A stretch of 42,788 bases of DNA from Candidatus Woesearchaeota archaeon (GCA_964355745.1 CAYHEN010000002.1:1-42788), one strand, 5' to 3'. Counted from the stretch's first letter, positions 614-21,812 are shown. The notes: generated from the letters alone by a model not told the origin. Numbers and translations: made by a program.

Positions 614-654
614 CTCGTAACTCCGCTGGTATGGATTACACGCGAAATCGTTTG
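614..654 (-). repeat. degenerate GA-bracketed hairpin element (A5)
   Basis: minus strand AA-ACGATTTCGC-GT-GTAATCCATAC-CA-GCGGAGTTAC-GA-G; resembles 11391..11443 and 21746..21788. Confidence 0.7.
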
Positions 655-678
655 GATACAAAACAGGAGTTTTGCATA

Positions 679-996
679 ATGGACGAAACAAGATTACAAG
701 AGTTGCAGATTCTTGAGCAGAGATTGCAGAATTCAATTCTCCAGAAACAGGCTTTTCAGATGGAACTCGCAGAAACTAATTCTGCCCTGAAAGAAGTTGA
801 AAAATCAGGAGAAGAAGTTTTCAAAATAATCGGACAATTGATGATTAAGGCGGAAAAAGGAAAAATTCAGGAAGAATTGTTATCCAAGGAAAAAATTTTG
901 GAATTAAGGATAAAGACATTCGAGAAACAGGAGAATTCTTTAAGCGAACAAGTGGAAAAAATCAGAGACGAACTGACAAAATCCATGAAAAAGTAA
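679..996 (+). CDS. pfdB: prefoldin subunit beta
   Basis: coiled coil with central VFKIIGQLMI hairpin; start MDET at 679 has a GGAG SD; conserved gene order. Confidence 0.93.
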   Translation: MDETRLQELQILEQRLQNSILQKQAFQMELAETNSALKEVEKSGEEVFKIIGQLMIKAEKGKIQEELLSKEKILELRIKTFEKQENSLSEQVEKIRDELTKSMKK

Positions 997-1059
997 ATAT
1001 TAGGAAATATATAAAAAAAGTTACGAAATCTTTATAAATATATTATATCTAAAGTTGAT

Positions 1060-1452
1060 ATGGCATTCAACCTAAAAAAGATTTTTGGTGGCGCTCCAAA
1101 GGGAGAAGGCAGTGCAGAAGATTATTTAGAAATTGATTTGGATAAAGAGGAAAGAGAAGGGAAGGTTTTAGTGAAACTTTTTGTTTTGAAAAAATACGAA
1201 GATGTCAATACTATCCTTAATGTTTTAAGAGAGGGGTACACTATTGCTATAATAGATATAAAAGTTTTGAAATCAAAAGATCCTATTGAATTGAAGAGGG
1301 CTGTTTCAAAAATCAAAAAGACAGCAGACGCTCTTGAGGGAAATATTGCTGGTTTTGGAGAGAACTTGCTAATTGTTACTCCGCCATTTGCACAGATTCA
1401 AAGAGAAGCTACTCCTCAGGGTCCAGAGCCAAAGAGCAATAAATTCGATTAA
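1060..1452 (+). CDS. sepF: cell division protein SepF
   Basis: archaeal SepF pattern (DYLEID...LREGYTIAIIDI...LKRAVSKIK...GNIAGFGENLLIVTP); TTTATAAA box upstream. Confidence 0.9.
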   Translation: MAFNLKKIFGGAPKGEGSAEDYLEIDLDKEEREGKVLVKLFVLKKYEDVNTILNVLREGYTIAIIDIKVLKSKDPIELKRAVSKIKKTADALEGNIAGFGENLLIVTPPFAQIQREATPQGPEPKSNKFD

Positions 1453-1499
1453 TTCTTAATTTTAGTTAATTTTAAAAACAAGTTATTTTCTATCTTACA

Positions 1500-2117
1500 A
1501 TGAAAACCTTATTTATCCCTGTAAAAATCAATTCAGAAGTCAATGAAAGAAAAATACAATCTCTGAAACTTCCAGAAAGCATAGCAATTGCTTATTCAAT
1601 ACAATACAAGGATATTGCGTTTAAAATAAAAGAAATTTTGTCTAAGAGAAATGAAATAACAGAAATTGTTCAGGTTTTGGGGTGTAGCAAGCCGAAATTC
1701 TCTAAAAATACAAAAGCAATATTATTGATAAGTTCCGGAGAATTTCATGCGGTTTCTCTCGCATTTGAGACTAAACTGCCTATTTATATACTGGAATCCA
1801 GCAAGCTAAGAAAAATTTCAGATGAGGATGTGTATGCTTTTGAAAAACAAAAGTTTGCTTCTTACATGAAATTCCTCAACTCTGAAAAGGTTGGAATTTT
1901 AATTTCAACAAAGCCAGGACAGGAAAATCTGAAAAAAGCTATTGATATTCAGAAAAAACTGAAAGACAAGCAGTCCTATTTGTTTCTCAGCAACGAAATA
2001 GACACAAGACAATTCGAGAATTTTAATGGCATAGATGCATGGATTAATACCTCTTGCCCGCGAATGGATTTTGAGGGATTTGTGTTTAATATGGATGGTT
2101 TGAAGAACAAAAAATAA
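1500..2117 (+). CDS. dph2: diphthamide synthesis protein Dph2 (short form)
   Basis: QVLGC, GEFH, STKPGQ and NTSCPR motifs. Confidence 0.85.
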   Translation: MKTLFIPVKINSEVNERKIQSLKLPESIAIAYSIQYKDIAFKIKEILSKRNEITEIVQVLGCSKPKFSKNTKAILLISSGEFHAVSLAFETKLPIYILESSKLRKISDEDVYAFEKQKFASYMKFLNSEKVGILISTKPGQENLKKAIDIQKKLKDKQSYLFLSNEIDTRQFENFNGIDAWINTSCPRMDFEGFVFNMDGLKNKK

Positions 2118-2223
2118 ATCAAGAAATCTTTATCACCTCTTTTTATTATTTGATTATAAGCAACCAATTATATTTTTTCATTAACTAAATTAGTTATATC
2201 ACGTGCGCTTTAGCGCAGACATA

Positions 2224-2631
2224 TTAAACTCTCGCTAGTCCAAAAACGCTTTTCAATGCAACTATGATTGTTGCAGGCACAAACAATGCTAACAAGCAAG
2301 CAAATATTGTTTGTGCAGTGAAGCCTGCATCAATTCCGATAAGAGAACTTGTAACACTATCCATTCCAAACTTACTTACAATTACAATAATAGTGCTTGT
2401 TATTAAAAATGCCTGAGTATCTTTCCCCTTTGCATTTATAGCAGCTCCGACAACTAACCCAAGGATTACCAATACTAAGTAGATAAAATTGCTGTACTTC
2501 CTGACTATGGATAACGGAACCAAAATTGTCAGTATTCCGATGACTATTGCAATGACAACTCCAATAAAAAATACCCATGCACCAACAGAATTCTCCCTAG
2601 ACTTCATCACCATGTAATAATAGAATTGCAA
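2224..2631 (-). CDS. hypothetical integral membrane protein (about 4 TM)
   Basis: four hydrophobic segments; start probably a few codons downstream. Confidence 0.7.
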   Translation of the reverse strand: MQFYYYMVMKSRENSVGAWVFFIGVVIAIVIGILTILVPLSIVRKYSNFIYLVLVILGLVVGAAINAKGKDTQAFLITSTIIVIVSKFGMDSVTSSLIGIDAGFTAQTIFACLLALFVPATIIVALKSVFGLARV

Positions 2632-2733
2632 GAAATATATAAATCTTCTCCCAAATAAAAAAATCGATGGTTTAATCTATATTTTACAACACAAGAAACC
2701 TTATAAATCATCTTAACTGCAAAATGATTACAC

Positions 2734-4383
2734 ATGATAAACCAGACAAACAACAAATCATTAAGAGTTTTTGGATTGAGTGTATTAGTATTGTTCACTC
2801 TCTTGAGTTTTGCTGGTGCGGCAATAACTCTTACTCCAACTTCAGTGACTTTCAACAAGTTTGAACTAACTAAATCATTTACAATAACTACCGGTACTGA
2901 TAATACTACTCTTACTTTACCTACTACTGTTACAATTTCAGATAATCAAAATCCTGCTAATACTATAATAGTGACATTTGGTACCCCCGTTATAACAGGA
3001 ACCGCAAATCCAGGACCAAATACTACTAATTTAGATATAGGAGAGACTGCAACAATAACTGTTACTTCTACTCTTCCAAGTAATGATTTTACTTTCGGAA
3101 CTTTTTCAGCAACTGCCAATATAACTGCAAGTACAGACACAGCCGGTAAAGTTTTAACACTCAACTTCCAAAACTCACCAAATGAAGAAGCAGACAATGG
3201 AAATTTAAATATAGATGATGTTGATATTTCTGTTACTAACGGCTTTGGAGATGACACAGAATGGTTCCCATTAGATGAAATCAGAGTTAATGTTGATGTA
3301 AGCAATGATGCAAATGATGAAATGAGAAATATTGTTGTTGAATGGGGACTTTATGACAAGCAAAATACGAGATGGGTAATACAGGAAGAAGAAAGCGATT
3401 TTGACTTAGATGAAGATGATGGAAAAACATTGGAATTTTCTTTTATTCTTGACAACATGAACCGGATTGAAACTGATGGAGATTATGTGTTCTATGTATG
3501 GGCTACAGGAGATGATAAGGAAACTGATAACGAAACTTCAACTTTTTCTTCTTTGCCTATTGATATAGTTATTGACAGCCATTTTGTAGTCCTTGATTCC
3601 CTTGAGCTTGTAGGAACAGCTTCATGCGGTGATACAATTCAAGTTTCAGGAGAAGTTTGGAATATCGGAGATGATGATGAACAGGATGTTTATCTCAAGG
3701 TTTTCAACACACTATTAGGAATTTCACAGAGAGTAGATTTAGGAGATATAGACAGCCTTGAGTCTAAAGATTTGTTATTCAATATTGTTATTCCAGAAGA
3801 TGCAGAAGAAGGAAAATCTTATGATATAACTTTCTTAGTATATGATGACAGTGATGACATATTTGAAAACAGCAATGGAGATGAATCAGAATTCAGCCTT
3901 CCATTAAATATTGCACCAGGAAGCTGTTCAGCAGAAGTTCCTGTTGTAGTAACTGCTAGCTTAGAAACAGCAGCAAAAGCAGGAGAAGAATTCACTGTCA
4001 AGGCAACAGTAACCAACACAGCTTCAATAAAGAAAACCTTCATTTTTGAAGTAGGCGGATATACTGATTGGGCTACATTCGTTTCTGTAGACAAGCCAAG
4101 CTTGACTTTAGATGCAGGAAAATCAACAGAGGTTTTAATCAAGTTAAAGGCAAATGAAGGAGTTTCTGGAAGCAAGAACTTCAACATTGTTATGAAAGAA
4201 GGAAGCAAGGTTTTAACACAGCCAGTTTCAGTTTCAGTAGCAGGAAAAGGATTCAGCCTTACAGGATGGATTTCAGGATTGGGGCTTGGCGGAAATACTT
4301 ACTTATGGGCTATTGGAGCGTTGAATGTCCTTTTAGTCTTGATAATAATTGTGGTAGCAGTGAGAGTTGTCAGGAAGAAGTAA
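2734..4383 (+). CDS. secreted acidic surface (S-layer-like) glycoprotein with Ig/CARDB-like domains and C-terminal TM anchor
   Basis: signal peptide, D/E/T-rich beta segments, VWNIGDDDE CARDB-like motif, C-terminal TM then RVVRKK. Confidence 0.8.
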   Translation: MINQTNNKSLRVFGLSVLVLFTLLSFAGAAITLTPTSVTFNKFELTKSFTITTGTDNTTLTLPTTVTISDNQNPANTIIVTFGTPVITGTANPGPNTTNLDIGETATITVTSTLPSNDFTFGTFSATANITASTDTAGKVLTLNFQNSPNEEADNGNLNIDDVDISVTNGFGDDTEWFPLDEIRVNVDVSNDANDEMRNIVVEWGLYDKQNTRWVIQEEESDFDLDEDDGKTLEFSFILDNMNRIETDGDYVFYVWATGDDKETDNETSTFSSLPIDIVIDSHFVVLDSLELVGTASCGDTIQVSGEVWNIGDDDEQDVYLKVFNTLLGISQRVDLGDIDSLESKDLLFNIVIPEDAEEGKSYDITFLVYDDSDDIFENSNGDESEFSLPLNIAPGSCSAEVPVVVTASLETAAKAGEEFTVKATVTNTASIKKTFIFEVGGYTDWATFVSVDKPSLTLDAGKSTEVLIKLKANEGVSGSKNFNIVMKEGSKVLTQPVSVSVAGKGFSLTGWISGLGLGGNTYLWAIGALNVLLVLIIIVVAVRVVRKK

Positions 4384-4385
4384 AA

Positions 4386-5006
4386 TTATCTCCTCATTAA
4401 TTTATCATATATTTTCTGCCCGAATTTGGTTTCTTTTTCTAATCTCACAACCATTATTCCAATTATATAGCCAAGAAAAGCTCCTGTGAGAACATCACTA
4501 AAAAAATGTAGTCCAAGATAAACTCTTGAAAGAGCAATCAATACAGCAATTCCAATCCAGACTTTTTTTAATTTCGGGTATTGTTGTGAGAGAATTGGAA
4601 TTGCACAAAAAGCGAATAATGCATGAGAAGAAGGAAAAGAAAAATTCCATATGTTATGACTTGTTTCCTGCAAGCTCGGCAATAGAGAGATAATTCCTAA
4701 CTGAAAAGGCCTTAATCTTTGAATCATTACTTTCAGCATAAAGCTCACTGTAGCAGAAATTCCCAATGTAAGCCATAAAGGAAAAACCCATCTTCTTTTT
4801 TTGTCTCTCCAAACGAACAAGGCAGTAAGAACAAGAAATATTACTGCTTCTGAACTAATGAAAGTTATTAAAATAAAAAATTTATCCAAAATCCCATTTC
4901 TTAAAAGAGAAACTTCTCTGACAAGGATATTATCAAAATAAAAACTCACAAGAATTGCAAATATGACTATAATAGAAATGATAATTCCTTTATTTTTCCA
5001 CCTCAT
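4386..5006 (-). CDS. PAP2-family membrane phosphatase
   Basis: K-x6-RP, SFPSSH and SRVYLGLHFFSDV motifs. Confidence 0.93.
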   Translation of the reverse strand: MRWKNKGIIISIIVIFAILVSFYFDNILVREVSLLRNGILDKFFILITFISSEAVIFLVLTALFVWRDKKRRWVFPLWLTLGISATVSFMLKVMIQRLRPFQLGIISLLPSLQETSHNIWNFSFPSSHALFAFCAIPILSQQYPKLKKVWIGIAVLIALSRVYLGLHFFSDVLTGAFLGYIIGIMVVRLEKETKFGQKIYDKLMRR

Positions 5007-5054
5007 CCTTTTACAAATAAGAAATTATTTAAATATATTTCCACTTGGCTTTTT

Positions 5055-5612
5055 ATGAAAAGAGAGGTTAAAACTGTTTTTGATATTGTTCTTAGATATG
5101 TAATATTAATTTTAGTTGGTGTTTCAAACAGCGGAATTTTTTATCTTCTCTTTTCAGCCATTACCATTTATCCTGTTTATTTTCTGCTTAAATTCTTTTT
5201 TGATACTTCCTTGATGTATAACATAATAACAATCAATAATTCTGCAATAGAAATTATCAGGGCGTGTGTTGCAGGCTCTGCTTATTATCTGCTTTTGATA
5301 TTAAATTTATCTACAAGGGGAATAAATTTGAGAAAAAGAATTTTCATGTTACTCTTTTCTTTCTCATCTTTCTTAATTATAAATATATTGAGAATTTTCT
5401 TTTTGTCTATTTTGTTTGTTTCTGGAATTTCTTTTTTTGATGTAGCACATAAACTCTTTTGGTATGTGGGGAGTGTAGTTTTTGTCGTCGCTATCTGGTT
5501 TTTTAGTGTTAAAATATTCAAAATAAAGGAAATTCCAATCTATTCAGACATTGTCTTTTTGCTGAAATCAGGAAAAAAGGTTAAAAAAACCAAGAGTTCC
5601 AAGAAGTACTAA
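5055..5612 (+). CDS. archaeosortase/exosortase family protein (pacearchaeosortase-like)
   Basis: multi-TM; Cys (IIRACVAG), Arg (NILRI) and His (AHK) in exosortase-like spacing. Confidence 0.8.
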   Translation: MKREVKTVFDIVLRYVILILVGVSNSGIFYLLFSAITIYPVYFLLKFFFDTSLMYNIITINNSAIEIIRACVAGSAYYLLLILNLSTRGINLRKRIFMLLFSFSSFLIINILRIFFLSILFVSGISFFDVAHKLFWYVGSVVFVVAIWFFSVKIFKIKEIPIYSDIVFLLKSGKKVKKTKSSKKY

Positions 5613-6047
5613 TACCCCTGCAATTAACACTCCTAAGGATATTGCTAATATGCTTTTCCTTCTGTCTAAATCCAAGAGCCATGAGATCAAAACCCCACTC
5701 CACGCTCCTGTTGCAGGGAGAGGAATTGCAACAAACAATATCAAAGCCAGAAATCCCATAGAAGAATATTTTTTCTCAAATTTGTCTACCTTTTTCTGAA
5801 GTCTCTCCACATATTTATCAAAAAATCTTTTATAAAATTTGATGTTAAGAAATAAATGATGAAATCTGTCAAGAAAAAAGAAGGCAAGGAATATTGCAAG
5901 AATGTTTGTCATTACTATCAGCGGAAAAATCAAGGCAATAGGAATATTGTGCTGATTTGCGTAAATTATCGCTAACGGAAGTCCTCCTCTTAGTTCGCTT
6001 ATTGGAAATATGGAAAGAATAAGTGCATAGATGATTTTCAAATCCAT
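5568..6047 (-). CDS. COG2426 / small multidrug export family membrane protein
   Basis: PISELRGGLP and FVAIPLPATGAWSG motifs. Confidence 0.88.
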   Translation of the reverse strand: MDLKIIYALILSIFPISELRGGLPLAIIYANQHNIPIALIFPLIVMTNILAIFLAFFFLDRFHHLFLNIKFYKRFFDKYVERLQKKVDKFEKKYSSMGFLALILFVAIPLPATGAWSGVLISWLLDLDRRKSILAISLGVLIAGVLVLLGTLGFFNLFS

Positions 6048-6048
6048 T

Positions 6049-6765
6049 TTATTCTAATACCCGATTAGCTCTTATAAGGGTTTCAAGCATGAATTTTTCT
6101 GTTCCTTTTAAAATCTGGCAATTATTTGCATATATATTGTAACACCTAAGCCCGAATTGTTCCACTTTTGTTTCATTTCCTTCAAGTATGTTCAAATACA
6201 TATACCTTCCAGTAGCATCACAACTGGCATTTTCATCTTTTATCACGTTTACGTCAAGAACCTTGTATAGATTTACAATGTTTGCAAGTCCGATAATTCC
6301 GTCTCCGTCACAATTAAGCGAGTTTGTCATGTTCACAACCATATTGCTTTCCAGCAATAAATTACCATTAAAAGGCATAGTTTTCAAGGTTCTAGGGTCT
6401 TTTCTCAGATAGAAATTATAACTTGCTGCTGTTCCGTTATACATAACAGGCAGATATGTTTTGTAAAGAATTAATTTCCCCTCTTTTACAATTTCAAACT
6501 TAACTCCATTAACGTCAAAATGTTTCATAGAATTAATAATCATATAAACTGAAAAAAACATCAGGGCAAAACCAACCATGATAATGATTATATTTTTAAA
6601 AATTTTATTTTCCTTTTTAATCTGCTCTTGTGACGGGACTTCCTCTTTACTATCTTCTGTTGCATGTGTTTCTATTATCTTCTTTTCCCCATCTTTTTCA
6701 ACATCAAAAATTTCAGAAACCTGTTCTTTTTTCTTGGTTTCTTTCTCTCTTTTTTCCTTTTTCAT
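6049..6765 (-). CDS. hypothetical single-pass membrane protein
   Basis: charged N-terminus, one TM, Cys-containing outer domain; loosely similar to the next ORF. Confidence 0.7.
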   Translation of the reverse strand: MKKEKREKETKKKEQVSEIFDVEKDGEKKIIETHATEDSKEEVPSQEQIKKENKIFKNIIIIMVGFALMFFSVYMIINSMKHFDVNGVKFEIVKEGKLILYKTYLPVMYNGTAASYNFYLRKDPRTLKTMPFNGNLLLESNMVVNMTNSLNCDGDGIIGLANIVNLYKVLDVNVIKDENASCDATGRYMYLNILEGNETKVEQFGLRCYNIYANNCQILKGTEKFMLETLIRANRVLE

Positions 6766-6797
6766 CTTTTTTAGATTCCAAACTTAATTTATAAATT

Positions 6798-7376
6798 TTA
6801 TTGTGTTATTCCAGTTATTTCAAATAAAAATCCATCGCTGAGCTTTGTCAAATTGCCTATATTTCCCTGAATAAAAACACAATTTTCTCTCTGCCTTATT
6901 TCAGTGCTGTTGCTTTCTTTTATTATTATAAAATTGCTTTCGCAGGTTTTTACAGGAGAACTGCTTTCACATTTCTCTCCTGTTAAGCAGGCATCCTGCA
7001 CTCTTTCAACTATCCTGTTTTGATAGAATAAATTCCTGTAAATTTCTAGCGTTGCCTCTGTGCTTTCAGAATAAACATATAAGGGTTTTCCAGAATAACT
7101 GTTCAAAAGATTCAATTTGGAATTTACTTTTTCAGTTTCTTTTGGATTGTATATAAAAAAGAATTGGTAGTTTCCAATGTTTGCATTCCAAAATCCAGAC
7201 TGCTTTGTAAATTCAATTCCATTATAGATTATTTTTTCACTGCTTTCTTTTTGCTCTCTGCCAAATGCATAACCTAAAACACTCGCGAGCATGATAAGAA
7301 CCATCGCCCCGCCAATCAGGAACTGATTTCTTCTCCTTTTCCTGCCTTCTTCCTCTTTGGAAAGTATTCTTCGCAT
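6798..7376 (-). CDS. hypothetical membrane-anchored protein
   Basis: basic N-terminus, TM, YNGIEF motif, Cys-containing C-terminal domain; TATA upstream. Confidence 0.7.
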   Translation of the reverse strand: MRRILSKEEEGRKRRRNQFLIGGAMVLIMLASVLGYAFGREQKESSEKIIYNGIEFTKQSGFWNANIGNYQFFFIYNPKETEKVNSKLNLLNSYSGKPLYVYSESTEATLEIYRNLFYQNRIVERVQDACLTGEKCESSSPVKTCESNFIIIKESNSTEIRQRENCVFIQGNIGNLTKLSDGFLFEITGITQ

Positions 7377-10584: not shown

Positions 10585-10929
10585 ATGACAACAAGAGAGA
10601 TAACAATAAAAGAGTCTAAAGGAGCATTTTCACTCTTCAAAAAATCCTCTAAAGGCAAAGAAGGGTATGATTTTTCAGGAATATCTGCCTTAAGGCAATT
10701 ATTGAATAATGAGAAAGCCAGGATTTTGAGTGTCATAAAAACAGAAAAACCTGCCTCTTTATACGATTTAGCTAAAAAGCTGAACAGGAGTTTTAAGTCA
10801 GTCCACGATGATATCAGACTTTTAGAGAGATTTGGCTTTATAGAACTCGTTGAAGAGAAAGTGAATAACAGGACAAGACACAAGCCTCATTTAATTGCAG
10901 ATACTATAACAATACATCTCAAGATTTAA
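10585..10929 (+). CDS. winged-HTH protein (HVO_A0114-like regulator/antitoxin)
   Basis: KPASLYDLAKKLNRSFKSVHDDIRLLERFGFI HTH. Confidence 0.8.
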   Translation: MTTREITIKESKGAFSLFKKSSKGKEGYDFSGISALRQLLNNEKARILSVIKTEKPASLYDLAKKLNRSFKSVHDDIRLLERFGFIELVEEKVNNRTRHKPHLIADTITIHLKI

Positions 10930-11474
10930 TAATAGACATTAAGCGAAACTTCATAATTATTGCCCCTCTTGGCGAAATCCTGAAATGCTCCTTTATAATT
11001 TCTTGTTTCATTTCCTTTTTTAAACAATAATCTTTCTTGCTCTCCAACACTTATGCTGAATTTATACCCTTTTACAGCGCTTTGTTCATTGATATTCCAC
11101 GCATTTTCTATTATTCCCTTTAAACTCTCATTGAGGATTTCGCAACTGTCTCTTTCATCAAGGCACTTTTCTTCTCTCTCACAAGCCACAATTAAATCCT
11201 GTATTGATAAAAATTCTATCTGATTCTCACACTCGCTCGTGTATTGCAATGCAGATTGTATAAAACTTTCTACTTCATAACTCTCAACAGCACTCTTGTC
11301 AGGACTTCTAAGCAAAAACCCAAGCAAAACCAGTAAAACCACTGAAACTATGACTACGATTACTACAAATCCCACCATTTCTTCTTGTCCCGAGCGATTT
11401 CGCGAGAGAGTCGGTTTAATCCAGTGACGAGCGAAGTCGCGAGCAGTTTTGATTTTATTTGTTTTTATTTTCAT
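10926..11474 (-). CDS. class III signal peptide (type IV pilin-like) protein
   Basis: RSG|QEEMVGFVVIVVIV hydrophobic stretch; start 11474 by ATGA overlap and GAGGAG SD. Confidence 0.8.
   Translation of the reverse strand: MKIKTNKIKTARDFARHWIKPTLSRNRSGQEEMVGFVVIVVIVSVVLLVLLGFLLRSPDKSAVESYEVESFIQSALQYTSECENQIEFLSIQDLIVACEREEKCLDERDSCEILNESLKGIIENAWNINEQSAVKGYKFSISVGEQERLLFKKGNETRNYKGAFQDFAKRGNNYEVSLNVYY
11391..11443 (+). repeat. GA-bracketed hairpin element A1, in-frame within a pilin leader
   Basis: C-GA-GCGATTTCGC-GA-(23 nt with TAATCCA)-GA-GCGAAGTCGC-GA-G. Confidence 0.85.
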
Positions 11475-12052
11475 GTTCTCTTCTCCTCTGAACTCACCAT
11501 AAGTCGTGCAAGTTCGCATTTATCATATATCATAATTCCATTTGATTCTTTTCTGCATAAGGAAACAAAATTAGAGATAGCAGGCAGAGTGTTCACGTCT
11601 TTGTCAAGAATATTCAAGATATCACAATCAGGATAGTTGCTCTCACTGCAAACGACATTTCCTTCGCTTGGATAAACTTTCCTTAATTCTATCTTTGCCA
11701 CTCTCCAGAGCTCTGAATCTTCGTCTACTCTGTACTTTAAAGCGATTAATTTGTCAAAATCAACACAGCTTGTTCTGCTACTCCCAAATGCATTTCCGCA
11801 TGAAAATTCAGGAGAATTCGCTAATTTAGAAACAAGGAGCATTGCATTCTGCTCTTCAAGATTAGTCGCTGTTTTCTTGACATTATACAATCTTATAGAC
11901 AAGAAGAAAATACCGACAAGTATGAATAAGAAAGTCACAGCTACAAGCATAAAAGTCATCTGCTGGATTTTCATTTGTGCCGAGCGACTTCGCGGAAGAC
12001 AGGCTCGTGATAAACGAGCGAAGTCGCGAGTTGTTTTTGTTATTTTTCTCAT
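11471..12052 (-). CDS. class III signal peptide (type IV pilin-like) protein
   Basis: RSA|QMKIQQMTFMLVAVTFLFILVGIFF; Cys-containing globular domain. Confidence 0.8.
   Translation of the reverse strand: MRKITKTTRDFARLSRACLPRSRSAQMKIQQMTFMLVAVTFLFILVGIFFLSIRLYNVKKTATNLEEQNAMLLVSKLANSPEFSCGNAFGSSRTSCVDFDKLIALKYRVDEDSELWRVAKIELRKVYPSEGNVVCSESNYPDCDILNILDKDVNTLPAISNFVSLCRKESNGIMIYDKCELARLMVSSEEKRT
11981..12030 (+). repeat. GA-bracketed hairpin element A2, in-frame within a pilin leader
   Basis: C-GA-GCGACTTCGC-GG-(20 nt)-GA-GCGAAGTCGC-GA-G, perfect 10-bp stem. Confidence 0.85.
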
Positions 12053-15181: not shown

Positions 15182-15208
15182 AACTATAGAATTGCTATAG
15201 TTTATAAA
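15182..15208 (-). promoter_or_regulatory. MazEF operator and TATA box
   Basis: inverted repeat AACTATAG-N5-CTATAGTT adjoining TTTATAAA. Confidence 0.65.
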
Positions 15209-15392: not shown

Positions 15393-15470
15393 ATTAAGCC
15401 GAGCGATTTCATGAGTATCGCGCCAAATTGTGAGCGAAGTCGTGAGTTAAAGAAACTGTAGGTTGTCTCG
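15393..15470 (+). repeat. GA-bracketed hairpin element A3 with conserved tail
   Basis: ATTAAGCC-GA-GCGATTTCAT-GA...GA-GCGAAGTCGT-GA-GTTAAAGAAACTGTAGGTTGTCTCG; matches 21739..21812. Confidence 0.85.
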
Positions 15471-15474
15471 CAAT

Positions 15475-17811
15475 CTAATAATCGCTTGGCCTTACAATTA
15501 TGCTGCAGCCATCAGGGGTTGGCTGATTTCCGAAATCATCCTGGCATTTTATATAGAAATTATTATCTGTGTTCCATTCTGTGAAATGATTTATGTTGTC
15601 AGAACTTGTCATAGCGATTCCATCATCAAAACTATAACTGCAGGAAGTTGTATCATAAACACACTCTGCTTCTTCGTTTGTTACTATCTTCAAACTTGCT
15701 CCTTCGTTGTATGCTCTGACAACTGCTGGAGAACTGAAATCAGTATCAACAACAAACTCTGTTGTTTCTGTATCGCAGTTTCCTCCTGAATCACAACACT
15801 CTATTGAATACCCGTAACTTCCTCTCGGAAGCCACAAATCTACTGAATGTTGATAAGAGTCTGTATTGGTAAATTTCCCCCTGCCTTGGGCTGCTGCTCT
15901 TTTTATAAAACAAGTTGCTTCTCCGTCTTTATATCCTGCAGAAGTTCTTGCTTGTACTGTGACTTTAACACTTTGTGTGGAATCTTTTATAACTGCTCCG
16001 CTTTTAGGAGTTACACTATCAATTACTAACGGCCTCGTTCCAATTAAAGTATATACATAAGACTGTGAATTAACTTGTCTATTAGTCTCTGGATCGTCTG
16101 GATCTTCATTATCATATTCTGGATGGCTGTTACACATGAAATAGAATTTATTTGCTGTCTGGTCTTTCAATCCGGTTAAGGTTGTTGTGCATTTGTAGAA
16201 CATATTCATATTGAATAATATAGCCTCTTCAGGAGTGTCTGCATCTGTGCAGTCCATTGTTTCTGTCATAGCTTCATAATCTTGGTCATTATGGCTCCAC
16301 TTACATTCAACGGGCTTGTCTAAATATACATCTATTCCAATTGATGTTGTTCCATATTGCACTGGCTTATTATTCTCAGGAGTAGTGAATTCTACTGTTG
16401 CAGCAGTGACATCTGGCGTGTCTTTTACGCAATATTTGAAAACAAATGTTCCATCATTTGCAAGGTCATTAGTGTTCATGCATCTTACAAATATTTCATA
16501 CTTTCCGTCTTCTCTGAATGGAATAGTCTGTCCTTCTAATAAGGCTATTCCCCAGTTATGCAATGAAGTAATTGTATGATCATACACAGAATATCCTGTA
16601 GTTAATTCTGGAATTTCTGTCATTTGTTGATAGGTCTCTGTTCTGTTTGTGCTGACTCTGCATTCTGCTAATTCATCTAAAGTCACTCCAAATGTCAATC
16701 TTGTAGCAGCACCAATACATCCATCTGTTGACGTCTTATCCTTTATTTCTACTCCTCTTTCAGAAGGAAGTGTTGTAGGTAATGGATCATATTTATACTT
16801 CTCTTCATCTAATGGCTCAAGCCAAGGACTTATTACTGGCGCAGTGTTATCATTTCTATTATGCCAATAACAAAATTTTTCATTTCTCAAAAACTGGCAT
16901 GATGCTCCCAAGCTCTCGCATTTATATCTATTGCATTCAAAATCTCCTTTATTACACTCCTCACAATTTGCTCCTTCTCCCTCTGGCTGCCAAGGATAAC
17001 ATGTGAATTTGTATTCATCAATTATGATGTTTAAGTCTCCAAATAATAAATATCCTAAAACAACTATTCCAGTAAGTATCAAAGCAGGAAGAGAAAATGA
17101 AAAGATCCAGATTTTAGTAAAAAGCCAAGTAGGAGCAGTAGCTCCTGCCAAAGAATACCCGTAAGAAACTAATGTTGCTACTGTTGATGCACTAAAATAA
17201 ACTATGCCTGTTGTCAATGCCAATCTACGAGCTGCTTCGGGATTTGCATCAAATAAACTCGCTATATATTTTGTTGCAGTATAAAGAGTAAATGCTGTTC
17301 CAAGATTACTTAATATTTGTAGTGCTGCGTTTCCAGTTGCTGACCAGAATCTTGTCCATGCTGCCTGTGCGGCTTTTTGTGCTGCTGCTGCCGCTGCGGG
17401 CTGTGTAGACGCTGCTGCCTCTGCTGCAGCAGCGTCGTATGCAGGAGTTGCTGGTACTCCTGCTTCAGAACTTGCTCCTGTTATATATTCTTCGGGAAAA
17501 GTCATTGGTGATGATGTCGGTGTCGGTGTTGCTGATGGCATAGGTGCTACTGTTCCCGATTCTGCTAGACCTGATGTAGGGGAAATAGCTCCTGCTCCTC
17601 CCGGAACAGTTACTATTTCTGCTTCTTCAATAATTTCTGGATTTTTCAATATTTCTTGCGCTTCTCGTCCCCCAGCACTCACCAATCTAAACTCTTCTCC
17701 AATAAGATAAGAAAAAGCAACAATGCTGATTACTAATACAAAAATCTCAAATATTGATAACTTTTTTTCTAATTTTCTTTTTTTATTATTTTCAATATCT
17801 CTTTTTATCAT
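15475..17811 (-). CDS. large membrane/surface protein: Ala/Pro/Thr-rich linker, hydrophobic helices, Cys-rich and Ig-like domains
   Basis: translation; CEECN...CNRYKCESLGASC; repeated C-x-W/Y beta modules. Confidence 0.75.
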   Translation of the reverse strand: MIKRDIENNKKRKLEKKLSIFEIFVLVISIVAFSYLIGEEFRLVSAGGREAQEILKNPEIIEEAEIVTVPGGAGAISPTSGLAESGTVAPMPSATPTPTSSPMTFPEEYITGASSEAGVPATPAYDAAAAEAAASTQPAAAAAAQKAAQAAWTRFWSATGNAALQILSNLGTAFTLYTATKYIASLFDANPEAARRLALTTGIVYFSASTVATLVSYGYSLAGATAPTWLFTKIWIFSFSLPALILTGIVVLGYLLFGDLNIIIDEYKFTCYPWQPEGEGANCEECNKGDFECNRYKCESLGASCQFLRNEKFCYWHNRNDNTAPVISPWLEPLDEEKYKYDPLPTTLPSERGVEIKDKTSTDGCIGAATRLTFGVTLDELAECRVSTNRTETYQQMTEIPELTTGYSVYDHTITSLHNWGIALLEGQTIPFREDGKYEIFVRCMNTNDLANDGTFVFKYCVKDTPDVTAATVEFTTPENNKPVQYGTTSIGIDVYLDKPVECKWSHNDQDYEAMTETMDCTDADTPEEAILFNMNMFYKCTTTLTGLKDQTANKFYFMCNSHPEYDNEDPDDPETNRQVNSQSYVYTLIGTRPLVIDSVTPKSGAVIKDSTQSVKVTVQARTSAGYKDGEATCFIKRAAAQGRGKFTNTDSYQHSVDLWLPRGSYGYSIECCDSGGNCDTETTEFVVDTDFSSPAVVRAYNEGASLKIVTNEEAECVYDTTSCSYSFDDGIAMTSSDNINHFTEWNTDNNFYIKCQDDFGNQPTPDGCSIIVRPSDY

Positions 17812-17812
17812 A

Positions 17813-19528
17813 TTAACCTATGTCTTTATCTATAGATAATGCGTTTTTTACATCTCCTTGTCTGTTAATATAATTCACTTTATTTCCGCAATCTCCTAAT
17901 GAATTGCAGATATCCATTAATTCTGCTGCCCAAGAATCTTCTGTACACTCGCAATTTTCTTTGCAATCTCCACTTGTACCTCCAGGTATTAATGTTTCAA
18001 GTATTGTTTTCCCCCTTACTACATAGCATGAAGTAGTTGCTGCAGCACAATCAGATATCACTCCTTCTGGTAGATTTCTATTAAATCCAGGAGGAAATAA
18101 AGGAACGCATGAACCCCATCCAGCATCTTCAGAGTCTTTAAGTATAGGAGCAGAATCCGCCAATTCCTCTGAAAAATCAAAATCTCCCTTTGATTTAGGC
18201 TCCCATCCAGAATAAGTCTTCCATTCACAATCCCTTACATCACTATTCTCACAATCTTCTTTAGTTGTTTGATCAACACAATCCTGCCAAACATTCACTT
18301 TGCAACCCGCATTTAAGAAATTTTCATCTTCATCTTTAATTTTATTATCATTTTCATCTACAACCCCATAAGTACAAATTTTCTGCCTTGTCATGCTTGT
18401 TGGATCACATGCATAAAAAATAACTTCCCCATTCATACATAATGCTTTGTAATCATTTGCTCCAGGAGTGTCCCAATTAGCTATCTTTGAGTCTGTCACA
18501 CACCAACTCTCTCCATGTCTTGGCTTTCCATTTTCATTACCCTCTTGAGGATAATTTCCAGTGTAATCAACACAGTCCAGATTCTTGCAGAAATTATCTC
18601 CAACTAATGTTCCTCCAACTATTTTCTCTCCTGTTTCTTTCTGTTTGCACATGCTTCCAGAAAGAAAATCACAATCCCCACATATTGCTGAATTTTTGTT
18701 TCCTTTTCCATCCCCGCATTTAGATCCTTGAATTTTTGTCCAATAATCCCAATAATCATTTGAACCAGCAGGGTCAGTGTCTTTATCTGCTCTTTTTGAA
18801 TCATAAATATTTGCTAAATTTCCGCAACCATCAATAAACCTGACATCATTTCTTTCATCGCACGAGGTTTTTTTCGTCGGAACACAATTTGTTCCTAAAT
18901 TCGGTGCAGAGCATAAAAATCCAGGATGAAATTCGACATCTGAAAGAGAGGAAATTCTTCCTTTATTCTGGCATTGTTGTCTTGTTGTTCGCTCACATGT
19001 TGTTATAAAATCTTTTGTATAAACACAAGCTCCTTCTGTTCCGGGATTTGCACTTGCCAAGCAAGTTAATTCATCTTTAATATTGGGACGATAACTCGTA
19101 TTTACTCCATAGTATGTTGACATTCTGCTACATGTAACTTTGGTTACAAATGCTGACTGACTTCCTATCAAACAACACCCTAATTGGCATTGGTCAAGTT
19201 CGCTCTTTGGTTTTTCATCCCAATCTCCACCAGCATTCTCACAAACTATTCTTGGTGTATTTGACATGCATATTCCATCTTGCTGAATTATACATGTTCC
19301 AGAATTACAAAAAGAAGTTGTGTCACAAGAAGCAGCGATAACATTCAATTCTTCTCCAGTTAAATGTGAAATTCCTGTTGCACATTTTGATTCACTATCT
19401 ACATTTTGACAATAGGCAGGATTAGCGCCTGTTGTTTTCTCACAGCAATATGTTGTTGCTGAGCCAATTCCAATTAAGAAAATTCCAAGAATTAATACTA
19501 AGCAAACCATTACCTCTTTCTTTATCAT
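17813..19528 (-). CDS. secreted very Cys-rich protein
   Basis: signal peptide from MIKKEV (ATGA overlap at 19525-19528); dozens of Cys including CC pairs. Confidence 0.78.
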   Translation of the reverse strand: MIKKEVMVCLVLILGIFLIGIGSATTYCCEKTTGANPAYCQNVDSESKCATGISHLTGEELNVIAASCDTTSFCNSGTCIIQQDGICMSNTPRIVCENAGGDWDEKPKSELDQCQLGCCLIGSQSAFVTKVTCSRMSTYYGVNTSYRPNIKDELTCLASANPGTEGACVYTKDFITTCERTTRQQCQNKGRISSLSDVEFHPGFLCSAPNLGTNCVPTKKTSCDERNDVRFIDGCGNLANIYDSKRADKDTDPAGSNDYWDYWTKIQGSKCGDGKGNKNSAICGDCDFLSGSMCKQKETGEKIVGGTLVGDNFCKNLDCVDYTGNYPQEGNENGKPRHGESWCVTDSKIANWDTPGANDYKALCMNGEVIFYACDPTSMTRQKICTYGVVDENDNKIKDEDENFLNAGCKVNVWQDCVDQTTKEDCENSDVRDCEWKTYSGWEPKSKGDFDFSEELADSAPILKDSEDAGWGSCVPLFPPGFNRNLPEGVISDCAAATTSCYVVRGKTILETLIPGGTSGDCKENCECTEDSWAAELMDICNSLGDCGNKVNYINRQGDVKNALSIDKDIG

Positions 19529-20307
19529 ATTATTGTTGATGTAGCATATCCTGCAGGCCAAACCTGGCTTCTGACAGCAAACTGTAATTTATCTCCTGTA
19601 TCTCTATTCGTTAAAATGTAAACTTTCCCTCCATCTCCATCGCCTAATCTTTCAACTTTCAAATGAGGATAATATGTCATATACGTTTGTGGTTCTGAAT
19701 CTCCATAAAGAGTTTCCCATTCTATAATGCTACTGGCAATTGCAGTTAATTCATAAAGATTATTGTTCAACATTACAACAAAAGAATCATAGCTTTGTGT
19801 GTCCTCCCCCTTCGTCAAAGTCAAGGAATAATCAAATGTTGAAACAATTCTTTGAGGAAACAATTCAATTCTCCTGTCTCCTGATTTCAAATCCACACTA
19901 TACCCTTTTTTCTCGTAACTACTCTTCAAAGAAGCAAAACAAAATTTAACACTCTCTTCTATTTCATTCTTTATCTCCAATTCAATATGTTGCTTTAATG
20001 CTGGTTGCTGAACAGTGCAAGGTTTGTAATATTCTGTTGTATAGCATAAATATTCAATTTTTTCATCTTTGTAAAGAATATAGTTCTCTGGATTTAAACT
20101 TCCTCCCTGGAGAGATAATTTATCTGCAATGTCTTTTATCTCATCTTCCAAGCATGTCTGAATGTATGAAGGAGGATTTTTTTCTTCTCCTCCCAAAGTT
20201 GATTTAATTTGTGGATAGAAACTATAAATTAGAAAAGCAAGAGCAACAATTATTATAGCAATAATAATGAAAATAGTAACTTGCCCCCTTTTCTCCCCTT
20301 TTTTCAT
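19525..20307 (-). CDS. class III signal peptide (pilin-like) protein
   Basis: KRG|QVTIFIIIAIIIVALAFLIYSF. Confidence 0.85.
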   Translation of the reverse strand: MKKGEKRGQVTIFIIIAIIIVALAFLIYSFYPQIKSTLGGEEKNPPSYIQTCLEDEIKDIADKLSLQGGSLNPENYILYKDEKIEYLCYTTEYYKPCTVQQPALKQHIELEIKNEIEESVKFCFASLKSSYEKKGYSVDLKSGDRRIELFPQRIVSTFDYSLTLTKGEDTQSYDSFVVMLNNNLYELTAIASSIIEWETLYGDSEPQTYMTYYPHLKVERLGDGDGGKVYILTNRDTGDKLQFAVRSQVWPAGYATSTII

Positions 20308-20411
20308 ATCTGTTTTAAGATATCTTTATTTATAAAGTTTAAGGAAATTCTTTGTCTTATTAATTTATCTCGCTGATGCTTGCAAATTACAAACAATAGA
20401 GGGAATATCAT

Positions 20412-20747
20412 TCAAGAAGATGTGTTCTGCTGAATATCTTTTATAATAATCCCTTTTTTCTTCCATACAAATTCATCCTCTTCAAATCTTCCGTTCCTGT
20501 TTTTATCTTCCTGCACAGCAATCAATTCAAAAGAAACAGTATCTTCTTCAGTTCCAATTATTTTATAATAATACCTTAAATCTTCTCTTTTATCTTTATC
20601 TGTATCATATCCTTCTGTAATAAAATTACCATAATTACGGACAATAAGGGTTTGATATCTTTCATAATCTTTTATATTATTGCCTAAAGAAGTGCATCCA
20701 ATAATTGTTCCTATTCCAGCAAGCGCTATTAATTTTTTTAATCTCAT
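20412..20747 (-). CDS. hypothetical lipoprotein
   Basis: MRLKKLIALAGIGTIIGC lipobox-like; DTDKD and DKNRNG loops. Confidence 0.6.
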   Translation of the reverse strand: MRLKKLIALAGIGTIIGCTSLGNNIKDYERYQTLIVRNYGNFITEGYDTDKDKREDLRYYYKIIGTEEDTVSFELIAVQEDKNRNGRFEEDEFVWKKKGIIIKDIQQNTSS

Positions 20748-20807
20748 TAAACAAAGATTATCCCCCCTTTTAATAAACATTGTGATATTTTATCCCTGTC
20801 ATCACTT

Positions 20808-20920
20808 TCGTGTCAGTCGTCTACTCAGACTGATGCTCATTTATGGATTATCTCGCATCAATCTTCTATTCGGACTAATACTCGTCACTGGATTAAATTG
20901 TCTCTCTCGTATTAGTCTTC
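20808..20920 (-). repeat. tandem GA-bracketed hairpins A6/A7 plus a fifth arm, downstream of PCNA
   Basis: five 10-mers each flanked by GA; AGACTAATAC/GTATTAGTCC and AGATTGATGC/GCATCAGTCT; both loops contain TAATCCA. Confidence 0.85.
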
Positions 20921-21637
20921 GGTCTCCACTCTCGGAGCGAGCAAGAAATTCAGCTCCATGTGTTCTGTCTTGATATCTATCTTTAAGGGATGGTCGTTAG
21001 CGAAATGCAACAAAGTTTTCTCGCATAGCTTTGCTCCCTTGAGGAATTTCTGGAGATATTCCAGACTGTATTTGGATTTGCATTCTTCTGCTTCTATCTT
21101 CGCTTCGTCTCCAGAAAATTCGCTTCTCGCAGAATTCAATCCTTTTGACTCAATAATAAATTCTCCCTTTTTTATTATGAAAGAACACGCGTCAGAAACA
21201 ACAATGCAATCTTCAATAGCAGAAATCAAATCCACAGAAGAAATTTCCACTCTTGTGCTGTAATCTAATGTAGGCATTTCTTTTTCCTGCCCCTCTACTT
21301 CAATTAAATTCAAGCCAAAGTTTCTTCTTATCTTGTCGATAACTTGAATGTTCAGAAAATTTTCTCTCTTTTCCAAAATTAAAGAAGTTGAGCTACTGCA
21401 TCTCCTCAGAATTCTCTTCAAACTGTCTAAGTTAATTCCCAAAACTTCGTTTCCTGTCTCAAACTGAGAAAACGCGCTTTTCGGAAGCCTGAATCTGACC
21501 ATTGCAACGTTCGCTGGGTCGATTGCAGTTATGCTCATGCCGAATTCACTAATCTTGATTCTCACTTCTGTAACTAACTCAGATATAACCTCTATTACTT
21601 TTGATAGCAAACTCGGGTCTTCTAATTTTACTAGCAT
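20912..21637 (-). CDS. pcn: DNA polymerase sliding clamp PCNA
   Basis: AIDPANVAMV, SKYSLEYL, FLLAPRVE motifs. Confidence 0.98.
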   Translation of the reverse strand: MLVKLEDPSLLSKVIEVISELVTEVRIKISEFGMSITAIDPANVAMVRFRLPKSAFSQFETGNEVLGINLDSLKRILRRCSSSTSLILEKRENFLNIQVIDKIRRNFGLNLIEVEGQEKEMPTLDYSTRVEISSVDLISAIEDCIVVSDACSFIIKKGEFIIESKGLNSARSEFSGDEAKIEAEECKSKYSLEYLQKFLKGAKLCEKTLLHFANDHPLKIDIKTEHMELNFLLAPRVETED

Positions 21638-21684
21638 ATTTATGGAAGTATTGTTCCTCTTTTAAGCATTATTGTTTTAGAGTT

Positions 21685-21812
21685 GCGATTTCCATCAGGG
21701 GCAGTTAGAGAAATCGCTCAACAGCGCCAAGAGGGAAAATTAAGCCGAGCAACTTTGCGTTTTAATCCATAATTAGCAAGGTTGCGAGTTAAGAAAACCG
21801 TAGGTTGTCTCG
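21685..21812 (+). repeat. composite element: module B + hairpin A4 + tail
   Basis: B matches 12068; A4 stem GCAACTTTGC/GCAAGGTTGC with TAATCCA loop; tail matches 15446..15470. Confidence 0.85.

Follow-up and report, generated by a model that had tools for sequence, protein, structure and literature searches.

A dispersed hairpin family of a Woesearchaeota archaeon that looks like a small mobile element and bears on the origin of archaeal tRNA introns

Hairpin copies and their neighbouring genes

The DNA analysed here, referred to as the window, is a stretch of 42,788 nt (CAYHEN010000002.1:1-42788, GCA_964355745.1) from a Candidatus Woesearchaeota archaeon, a tiny archaeon from groundwater whose 792-kb genome (G000) is 85.5% complete. 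It contains a PCNA gene and two ORFs encoding small proteins that matched no Pfam or NCBIfam family, the second having an N-terminal layout similar to that of the first (Table 1). The seven hairpins that the initial annotation had described in this stretch were all confirmed in place, and they are exactly the matches of the R1 covariance model on the contig.

Table 1. Hairpin copies and associated genes in the window.
Feature	Position	Strand	Details
Family copy	615-653	-	R1 E 3e-7; short loop with the TAATCCA 7-mer; outer 5' bracket degenerate
Family copy	11392-11442	+	R1 E 4e-14; long loop
Family copy	11982-12029	+	R1 match; loop type dominant in relatives
Family copy	15401-15445	+	R1 E 2e-7
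Family copy	20825-20866	-	R1 match; second of a tandem pair, 3 nt after copy 20870-20920
Family copy	20870-20920	-	R1 match; sense to PCNA, first of the tandem pair
Family copy	21747-21787	+	R1 E 6e-11
PCNA gene	20912-21637	-	Pfam PCNA_N and PCNA_C; 3' end overlapped by copy 20870-20920
Small protein, signal-peptide-like N-terminus	10926-11519	-	Leader hosts copy 11392
Second small protein, similar N-terminal layout	11471-12052	-	Leader hosts copy 11982

The copies occupy diverse surroundings. Copy 615-653(-) is located upstream of, and divergent from, a prefoldin gene (Pfam prefoldin match, 631-996), and its GA strand folds at -9.4 kcal/mol versus -5.9 kcal/mol for the complement. Copy 11392(+) is placed antisense and in frame, as a 54-nt unit with zero stops, between the Lys-rich start and the hydrophobic segment of its host protein, and 22 nt without the element stand in place of 11385-11463 in a relative's contig. 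Copy 11982(+) is likewise antisense and in frame (51-nt unit); in the relative G007, the apparent counterpart of its host ORF has a pair of tandem units in this place. Copy 15401(+) is intergenic, flanked by a VapB-like antitoxin gene and a 778-aa ORF, both on the (-) strand and both antisense to it. Copy 20825-20866(-) has a 5' arm that repeats the PCNA-end sequence in the form found in another relative, G010. Finally, copy 21747(+) is found where PCNA and a PHP-domain gene diverge, sense to the latter; in the contigs of close relatives (two runs), 28 nt replace 21720-21791 and retain just the last few bases of the element. Placement both sense and antisense to genes, as initially reported, was confirmed.

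Architecture, folding strand and distribution of the family

A strict descriptor of the family, consisting of GA, 10 nt, GA, a loop of 8–40 nt, GA, 10 complementary nt and GA with at most one mismatch, gave 9 hits in the 792-kb genome, in excess of the mean of 0.75 (maximum 4) in 20 dinucleotide shuffles. When the descriptor was relaxed to one outer GA, 25 hits were obtained versus 12.05 in shuffles, and without any outer GA the count was 90 versus 90.5, indicating that the loose form alone occurs at chance level. The covariation of the stems proposed in the initial annotation was borne out on 18 copies: 95.6% of the stem cells are paired versus 75.5% after shuffling (0 of 500 shuffles match), pairing drops to 27–44% when the partner arm is slid, and double-sided changes are found in all 10 of the 10 stem pairs. 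The result was repeated with 24 copies from an independent genome, G013 (96.7% of cells paired versus 81.6%).

The GA dinucleotides, claimed to bracket both arms, kept their place only on the outer side, where they are near-constant (36/40 and 35/40), the inner ones being degenerate (22/40 and 23/40); all four are intact in only 17 of 40 copies. What is near-invariant is a single A or G abutting each arm end (39, 35, 40 and 37 of 40). Across the 40 copies, the element borders read CC plus GA on the 5' side and GA plus G on the 3' side. The TAATCCA 7-mer, correctly described as present in five of the seven window loops, occurs in 20 of 40 loops genome-wide.

The 400 stem cells of the 40 copies comprise 304 Watson-Crick pairs, 62 G.U, 11 A.C and 23 others, in agreement with the claim that deviations are mostly wobbles pairing on one strand; since G.U exceeds A.C by 62 to 11, only the GA strand folds. 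Consistently, folding energies make this the more stable strand in five of six window copies. In G013, U.G is the majority state at three stem pairs (17–21 of 24 copies); such pairing is costlier in DNA than in RNA. The covariation and the G.U excess back the view that a single-stranded structure is under selection.

Scanning the genome and its relatives with the covariance model revealed a family restricted in its clade and patchy in copy number. Among 61 genomes (61–98% complete), 16 carry the family and 45 do not. There are 40 copies in G000, 1–34 in 12 of 16 congeners and none in the other four; matches were found in 3 of 20 other genera of the same family, and in none of 24 genomes from other families of the order. 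The copy-rich congeners are G003 (34), G010 (26), G004 (23) and G013 (20, with 24 copies in the covariation analysis). The four copy-free congeners are 82–87% complete, so the family is not essential.

Some sites are filled and others empty, the behaviour of a dispersed repeat. Empty sites, whose existence was to be checked, include orthologous and near-isogenic ones and were found at the PCNA 3' end, at 11392 and 21747, at tRNA-Gln(CUG) and at a pilin-like gene; comparing empty with filled sites in the pilin leaders and at 21747 showed no target-site duplication. On contig C19, one copy is nested in the loop of another, directly after TAATCC, and a second repeat module is found inside loops in both orientations. 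Tandem pairs in G000 are separated by a 3-nt gap in all four cases, and G010 and G007 contain arrays with a period of 51. A profile scan for half-sites in G000 returned 70 solo matches versus about 62 by chance and no pair enclosing an ORF; within this 85.5% complete genome, neither an autonomous parent nor far-apart half-sites were found.

Host niches and rival explanations

Three copies in G000 constitute entire tRNA introns, in tRNA-Gln, tRNA-Glu and tRNA-Arg (aragorn). They are situated at the canonical position 37/38, and for these three copies only, removal restores a complete tRNA. The exons of tRNA-Gln(CUG) are identical in G000 and G013, and the 73-nt hairpin intron is present in G000 only. 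Introns at one position differ or are missing between congeners, and in neighbouring species other small repeat families make up the introns at this position. In minimum-energy folds, the anticodon loop is predicted to pair with the 3' end of the element in a 3–4 bp helix, beside which lie the splice sites, with 2–3 nt unpaired on either side. Furthermore, 11 of 40 copies in G000 and 11 of 24 in G013 lie at most 150 nt from a tRNA gene (about 0.8 and 0.6 expected), and 9/11 and 10/11 of them, respectively, are on the strand of the tRNA.

At the PCNA gene, the final codons of the gene, its stop codon (20912-20914) and the next 3 nt serve as the 5' bracket and arm of copy 20870-20920(-). The same arrangement is found in G016, G010 and G007, and the 3' arm fits each species' own stop codon, tracking TAA, TAG or TGA across the four species. 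PCNA orthologs occur in 14 of 16 congeners (66–90% identity); of 15 orthologous loci, 10 have an empty site at the 3' end, while the site is filled in 4 genomes and decayed in G012, and the gene tree is too poorly resolved for counting gains. This tracking looks like long-term selection on the structure or like a mechanism that copies the flank, and it counts against a simple selfish insert, because such an insert predicts neither reading. The initial annotation had mentioned neither the link to tRNAs nor the copies that form whole introns, lie in frame in leaders or include a stop codon.

The tRNA link, together with the intron, leader and stop-codon copies, makes a role at the RNA level harder to dismiss. 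The main rival explanation, which we regard as rather unlikely, is that the hairpins are structured small-RNA genes or modules, candidates for a kink-turn or K-loop-like particle with a putative L7Ae-type partner, riding on tRNA transcription and processing (as intron or 3' trailer) and on mRNA 3' ends; leader and other antisense copies would then be by-products of gene duplication. Such RNAs would fit the tandem G.A-type closures at both helix ends, the strong G.U excess with its majority state at three pairs, the same-strand association with tRNAs, the three whole introns and the way in which, in four species, compensatory change follows the PCNA stop codon. The niches (tRNA intron, just 3' of tRNAs, gene ends) also resemble those reported for the box C/D RNAs of Nanoarchaeum equitans, namely a tRNA intron, tRNA-sRNA dicistrons and gene ends. 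However, no Rfam family matched, whether at the gathering cutoff or with E relaxed to 1; there is no box C/D consensus and no free 12-nt guides, as the would-be guides pair together; and a kink-turn requires a canonical stem, which is not formed by the flanks. Moreover, the loops are unconserved between subfamilies and tolerate insertions, 4 of the 16 other congeners are copy-free, and at least five G000 copies lie antisense within coding leaders.

The initial annotation had favoured a single-stranded DNA role, for instance REP-like or as the substrate of an HUH/Y1 nuclease; spelled out, the hairpins would be REP-like elements mobilised by a RAYT or an IS200/IS605 TnpA. Strand-specific hairpins accord with this proposal, as does oriented insertion after a short preferred flank with no target duplication, which is the behaviour of IS200/IS605. 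Additionally, G000 encodes one intact Y1 transposase, outside the window (C22:546-893, 85.6 bits). However, the hairpins flanking this tnpA are not members of the family (zero R1 matches on C22), and no GTAG or CGTC tag is present at the flanks of the copies. The expected co-occurrence failed: searched as PF01797 in the 61 genomes, whose completeness of 61–98% limits any absence, Y1 was found in 4 of 16 carriers versus 10 of 45 non-carriers. Within the genus it is present in G000 and G008 only and was not found in the copy-rich G003, G010, G004 and G013, the last assembled in 5 contigs and 88% complete. These observations render the proposal very improbable. None of Y1 transposase, tyrosine recombinase, reverse transcriptase and Cas1 co-occurs with the family, and the lack of a matching transposase suggests that the copies are mobilised by an enzyme yet to be recognised or by the machinery of the host.

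Most tRNA-proximal copies are embedded in a duplicated version of the 3' end of that same tRNA. An exact copy of this end follows 5 of 37 tRNA genes in G000 and 11 of 36 in G013, and never precedes one; a hairpin stands between the 3' end and its duplicate in 4 of 5 and 7 of 11 cases, at the T-loop/T-stem junction of the duplicate. The duplicate after tRNA-Leu on C19 is uninterrupted, and in the homologous context on C20 it is split by the hairpin. This arrangement would also suit recombination sites or scars of tRNA-targeting integrative elements, left by a tyrosine recombinase crossing over in the T-loop, the hairpin not being an element itself. We hold that explanation to be still less credible, since a tyrosine recombinase was not found in the copy-rich G003 and G013 and is present in 2 of 4 copy-free genomes, some duplicates carry no hairpin, the majority of copies are not at tRNAs, and many different elements would be required because every duplicate matches its own tRNA only.

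Five copies in G000 are located in leaders, and all five have lengths divisible by 3, are open and run antisense; lengths divisible by 3 are found in 19 of the 35 remaining copies. Leader units obeying the same frame rule occur in G010 (3+1), G007 (2) and G003 (1). As read from the sequence alone, the leader units measure 45, 51 or 54 nt and contain zero stops. In G010, proteins resembling that encoded by ORF 10926-11519(-) show sub-threshold Pilin_N matches starting directly after the element block, and in the pilin-like gene that follows PCNA the element is present in G003 only. A function at the protein level, with a repeated Arg-rich module of signal-peptide leaders and an incidental DNA palindrome, would explain in-frame, open, tandem 17-residue units placed exactly N-terminal to a Pilin_N-like segment, but it can be practically discounted, given that the same sequence occurs in tRNA introns, tRNA trailers and intergenic DNA and with stops in frame (e.g. 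copy 20870), that the stem covariation is unneeded for protein coding and that orthologous leaders exist without the element.

A candidate mobile element and its relation to known systems

The explanation that we prefer, with confidence evenly balanced between acceptance and doubt, is that the hairpins are copies of a palindromic element specific to this lineage, which is non-autonomous, multiplies by duplication and acts as a single strand. It would survive only at sites that tolerate it and would be a supplier of tRNA introns. In its favour stand the patchy copy number within one clade, the filled and empty sites, the nesting and arrays, the open frame of the leader copies, the copy-free congeners and the strand-specific stem. 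We infer mobility as the cause of the filled and empty sites, a single-stranded intermediate and a target preference of the element. The conserved and presumably recognised part would be the 10-bp stem with a purine-purine juxtaposition (G.A type) closing either end, and the GA strand alone would be active or selected. The loop may be free cargo, differing by subfamily and taking in other small repeats and further copies. New copies would arise by oriented insertion, often after CC and in many cases after AATCC, a sequence also present in the 3' half of a T-loop, as well as by tandem duplication with a fixed 3-nt linker. They would persist only where harmless: as BHB-compatible introns at tRNA position 37/38, within duplicated tRNA 3' ends that have no function, between genes, at the ends of genes, and in signal-peptide (pilin-like) proteins, whose positively charged leader would accept an Arg-rich insert of 15–18 residues in a single orientation and frame.

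The strand bias at tRNAs and the U.G majority count against such an element, because both fit an RNA role, and presence or absence could partly reflect hairpin-mediated deletion instead of gain. The lack of target-site duplication at the examined empty sites, of an autonomous parent in G000 and of co-occurrence with any of the four classical mobilising enzyme families tells against it as well. A bolder version, unlikely in our estimation, is that the hairpin spreads without a dedicated transposase, through ubiquitous host nucleic-acid enzymes acting on the folded single strand, and is a direct and still-active source of tRNA introns. In its boldest form, proposed because of the stop-codon-matching arms at PCNA, the 3' arm would be templated from the host flank at insertion, which, if true, would constitute a new insertion mechanism.

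The RPE of Rickettsia and the MJRE of Methanocaldococcus jannaschii are short palindromic dispersed repeats without a transposase of their own, found between genes and in frame within them. The present family shares all these traits, and its ORF copies keep the frame open in G000, G010, G007 and G003 (5, 3+1, 2 and 1). It differs in its tie to tRNA genes and supply of whole tRNA introns, in its purine-purine stem closures and G.U-rich stems, and in having its coding copies specifically in cleavable leaders; no relation in sequence to either group is expected. REP/BIME elements and IS200/IS605 miniatures likewise consist of many strand-specific imperfect hairpins with possible roles at mRNA 3' ends and no target duplication, and the hairpins described here have the same strand-specific imperfect form, as seen from their G.U excess and covariation. 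Their compensatory stem variation, however, far exceeds that known from REPs; they have no co-occurring Y1 and no GTAG/CGTC head, and they are not confined to extragenic DNA. In a passage of PMC3733652, two REP superfamilies are defined by the GTAG or CGTC tag. Membership among MITEs is not supported by any target-site duplication, none being seen at the examined pairs, and the long tRNA 3'-end duplicates also occur hairpin-free; membership among integron attC sites is not supported either, a tyrosine recombinase not being found in the copy-rich G003 and G013 and the arrays having 3-nt linkers rather than cassettes.

Like box C/D sRNAs, the hairpins contain two G.A-closed motifs about one helical turn apart, but they lack the C/D consensus and any Rfam match and their 10-nt segments pair together; a C'-like heptamer is seen in some loops only, and the GA dinucleotides are the sole part of the boxes that is kept. 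Three copies resemble archaeal BHB tRNA introns as complete introns at 37/38 with a predicted short helix between bulges, whereas most copies are outside tRNAs, where no exon is available to form a BHB with them. Transposition of tRNA introns has reportedly been proposed in a study of Thermoproteales. According to the abstract of a 2026 preprint, the route by which archaeal tRNA introns arrive remains open. The family looks like a new small mobile element bearing on this origin: as it forms a whole intron in one species and none in the identical tRNA gene of a congener, intron origin becomes testable within one small clade, and the leader and stop-codon copies illustrate how selfish or structural DNA finds room in a very small genome (about 0.6–0.8 Mb).

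Architecture and covariation of the hairpin family

The assembly of the genome under study, G000, comprises 792 kb in 57 contigs, with 32.5% G+C and 85.5% completeness; the window forms part of its contig C2 and encodes the archaeal markers PCNA, prefoldin and S-layer genes. The seven hairpins reported by the initial annotation, built as GA-arm-GA-loop-GA-arm-GA with 10-nt arms, were all confirmed by direct reading and by a generic hairpin finder. Their frequency exceeded that of dinucleotide-preserving shuffles (n=20), the strict architecture occurring nine times in the genome against a mean of 0.75 and a maximum of 4. Loosening the pattern to one outer GA gave 25 occurrences against 12.05 in the shuffles, and removing the outer GA requirement gave 90 against 90.5. 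Since the loose pattern occurs at chance level and the strict one above it, the signal comes from a real family and not from the loose pattern.

Locations of GA-hairpin copies in the window and of a second repeat module
Feature	Location	Strand	Basis
GA-hairpin copy	615-653	-	GA-to-GA limits, hairpin finder
GA-hairpin copy	11392-11442	+	GA-to-GA limits, hairpin finder
GA-hairpin copy	11982-12029	+	GA-to-GA limits, hairpin finder
GA-hairpin copy	15401-15445	+	GA-to-GA limits, hairpin finder
GA-hairpin copy	20825-20866	-	GA-to-GA limits, hairpin finder
GA-hairpin copy	20870-20920	-	GA-to-GA limits, hairpin finder
GA-hairpin copy	21747-21787	+	GA-to-GA limits, hairpin finder
Second ~30-nt module	G000 C31:229-263, C6:18351-18398, C13:10461-10485		
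Second ~30-nt module	G013:C3, 10 places; G010, 7 places		

Eighteen copies fell into register unaided on alignment, and the stem covariation that had been proposed was borne out: 95.6% of the cells were paired, compared with 75.5% when partners were shuffled (0 of 500 shuffles reached 95.6%), pairing dropped to 27–44% once the partners were slid, and two-sided changes were present at 10 of 10 stem pairs. A covariance model made from this alignment returned 40 matches in G000 at a genome cut-off of E up to 1 (34 with E below 0.01), and the matches on the contig of the window were exactly the same seven hairpins. In an independent congener, G013, the 24 matches on a 623-kb contig had 96.7% of stem cells paired, against 81.6% after shuffling. 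An imperfect family-like hairpin seen by eye at about 21655–21705, on the minus strand, is absent from the model matches.

Among the 40 G000 copies, the outer GA brackets are retained in 36 and 35, against 22 and 23 for the inner brackets, and all four occur together in 17; a single purine adjoining each arm end is almost constant (39, 35, 40 and 37 copies). The stem cells comprise 304 Watson-Crick, 62 G.U, 11 A.C and 23 other combinations, and the three central pairs of the G013 stems are U.G in 17–21 of 24 copies. Predicted stability was higher for the strand that reads with GA brackets than for its complement in five of the six window copies tested. Given the large excess of G.U over A.C and the higher predicted stability of the GA strand, one strand is the folding strand, and from this asymmetry it follows that recognition or selection acts on a single strand. 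A kink-turn at the outer bracket was ruled out, as the flanks show no pairing, and so was mimicry of a T-arm by the loop, in which the four variable bases before the conserved word do not covary with it.

The loops fall into several unrelated types. The 7-mer TAATCCA, which the initial annotation had noted in most window loops, is present in half of the genome copies (20/40). One long loop type consists of a hairpin with a second, independent module of ~30 nt nested inside. This module, in which a stretch resembling the 3' end of 16S rRNA comes after a small hairpin, also occurs alone in spacers, inside a G013 tRNA intron and in the opposite orientation within other GA-hairpin loops. One GA hairpin is itself nested in the loop of another, directly behind the first six bases of the 7-mer; the gap between adjacent copies is 3 nt in four of four cases, and relatives carry arrays with a 51-nt period. 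Copies 15401 and 21747 are alike over ~25 more bases on the 3' side (15446–15475, 21788–21815) and a few on the 5' side, and by this sequence likeness may belong to a longer composite subfamily, of which a third partial relative lies at C3:43712–43769 of G000.

Distribution and genomic sites of the copies

In 12 of the 16 congeneric genomes besides G000, the covariance model detected between 1 and 34 copies at E up to 0.001. Beyond the genus, it detected the hairpin in 3 out of 20 genomes representing other genera of the taxonomic family and in none of 24 genomes representing the order's other families. Empty orthologous sites, a point raised in the initial annotation, were indeed found: at the PCNA end in 10 of 15 loci, the PCNA C-terminus being identical or almost identical across them all; at tRNA-Gln(CUG) of G013; and at two window positions, where contigs from public DNA runs have 22 nt without hairpin instead of 11385–11463 and 28 nt without hairpin instead of 21720–21791. 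One strand of the 623-kb G013 contig holds 19 of its 24 copies; the cumulative GC skew of this contig climbs monotonically and tracks gene orientation, with no replichore definable.

Copies cluster around tRNA genes. Within 150 nt of a tRNA called by aragorn lie 11 of 40 copies in G000 (~0.8 by random placement, maximum 6) and 11 of 24 in G013 (~0.6, maximum 4; 2000 trials each), of which 9/11 and 10/11, respectively, are on the strand of the tRNA. Downstream of ten G013 tRNA genes, the order is a spacer, a degenerate copy of the gene's own T-arm, the hairpin and an exact copy of its own acceptor 3' strand. An exact copy of the last 10 nt of the tRNA is located downstream of 5 of 37 tRNAs in G000 and 11 of 36 in G013, and upstream of none; the hairpin lies between the two 3'-end copies in 4/5 and 7/11 cases, and uninterrupted duplicates also occur. 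The duplicates, of 10 or more bases and within 260 nt of the tRNA, were observed on G000 contigs C9, C12, C19, C20 and C21 and at 11 tRNAs of G013:C3, and an inverted T-arm copy often precedes them.

Three copies constitute the whole introns of tRNA-Gln(CUG), tRNA-Glu(UUC) and tRNA-Arg(UCG) in G000. The exons of tRNA-Gln(CUG) are identical to those of the intronless G013 gene, and G013 tRNA-Glu and tRNA-Arg have unrelated introns at the position used by the hairpin introns of G000. In the predicted folds of the three precursors, the 3' end of the element pairs with the anticodon loop and the splice sites lie beside short bulges, an arrangement that by fold prediction, without a formal score, would resemble the bulge-helix-bulge motif of archaeal tRNA splice sites. 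RNase P RNA was found in the genome, so tRNA 5' ends are made ordinarily. One of the two G013 introns is a member of a third palindromic repeat family, which forms the introns of tRNA-Arg(UCG) and tRNA-Phe (G013:C3 200585–200727, 410368–410514) and also occurs downstream of PCNA in G008 (locus L046). Several small repeat families occupy tRNA introns in this genus. At G000 C48:4045–4151, G013:C3 147615–147753 and 200585–200727 and locus L083 of G016, aragorn assigned Stop(tta), SeC(tca) and Pyl(cta); rather than suppressor tRNAs, these seem to be intron-bearing tRNAs, probably for Gln and Arg, whose anticodons were misread.

In the signal-peptide-like leaders of small proteins, five G000 copies run antisense and in frame; each is preceded in the protein by a short start rich in Lys/Arg and followed by a hydrophobic segment. 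Such leader units, of 45, 51 or 54 nt, also occur in G010 (three in tandem and one single), G007 (two) and G003 (one); in G000, the length is divisible by 3 in 5/5 leader copies versus 19/35 others. The two leader proteins of the window matched no family in Pfam or NCBIfam. The label pilin-like rests on sequence features, because Pilin_N (cutoff 25.2 bits) gave only sub-threshold matches, of 19 and 14.6 bits, for a pair of G010 proteins whose N-terminal layout is similar; the match begins at residue 61 in the protein with three units and at residue 7 in the neighbouring gene, of similar layout and without a unit. G000 encodes a Peptidase_A24 homologue; this sole above-cutoff match to the prepilin peptidase family is separated by ~1.2 kb from two identical hairpins in tandem (C31:1153–1494 and C31:2680–2770).

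At the end of PCNA, the last codons and the stop codon serve as the 5' bracket and arm of copy 20870. The same layout is present in G016, G010 and G007, where the 3' arm matches the gene's own TAA, TGA or TAG and the following bases, and the hairpin has decayed in G012. A PCNA gene tree, meant for counting gains at this site, left 7 of 12 inner branches unresolved and grouped the filled G007 with the empty G003 and G004 (support 96/93). In the leader of the gene after PCNA, G004 (locus L048) has a short perfect, almost loopless palindrome where G003 has a full element; it could be a collapsed copy or a precursor. Upstream of PCNA, 21640–21850 contains copy 21747 and the imperfect hairpin at about 21655–21705 and is a synteny break, with a different neighbouring gene and no promoter-like block common to 13 relatives.

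Origin of the family and relation to known repeats

The simplest joint account, to which we give an even chance, is that the hairpins are copies of a palindromic element that is small, duplicative and non-autonomous and is filtered by host tolerance. It draws together the patchy, clade-limited copy number, the empty orthologous sites, the nesting, the fixed-linker arrays, the unconstrained loops and the restriction of surviving copies to introns, pseudo-tRNA ends, leaders, gene ends and spacers. Three points escape this account: which enzyme mobilises the element, why the arms at PCNA track the stop codon and why the stems prefer U.G. Together with the bias of nearby copies to the tRNA strand, they keep alive a possible, though rather unlikely, alternative in which tRNA and mRNA transcripts would serve to express the hairpin as a structured small RNA.

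Regarding an enzyme, all genomes are incomplete, and a missing gene is reported as not found rather than absent. Of the 17 genomes of the genus, 13 carry the family, and a tyrosine recombinase was detected in 9 of these and in 2 of the 4 others; it was not found in G003 or G013. In the same set, a reverse transcriptase was found in two genomes and Cas1 solely in a non-carrier. A half-site scan of G000 for an autonomous parent gave nothing beyond chance. The single Y1 transposase of G000 is an intact gene in an IS200-like unit (C22:480–1110), flanked on each side by a GC-rich hairpin unrelated to the family. The initial annotation's proposal that the hairpins are HUH/Y1 substrates is most improbable: of 61 genomes, 16 are carriers, and Y1 was found in 4 of them, against 10 of the 45 without the family.

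Rfam gave no match, either for the window at gathering score or for 16 hairpin loci at E up to 1, and no description of this family was found among the searched papers. Phage records gave no match to the copy region 11380–11455. The particular value of the family is that it bears on how archaeal tRNA introns arrive, a question that a 2026 preprint leaves open. Closest in behaviour are REP elements, the in-frame palindromic repeats reportedly present in Rickettsia and in Methanocaldococcus, and the mobile tRNA introns proposed for Thermoproteales, none of which shares the defining combination of the GA hairpin family.
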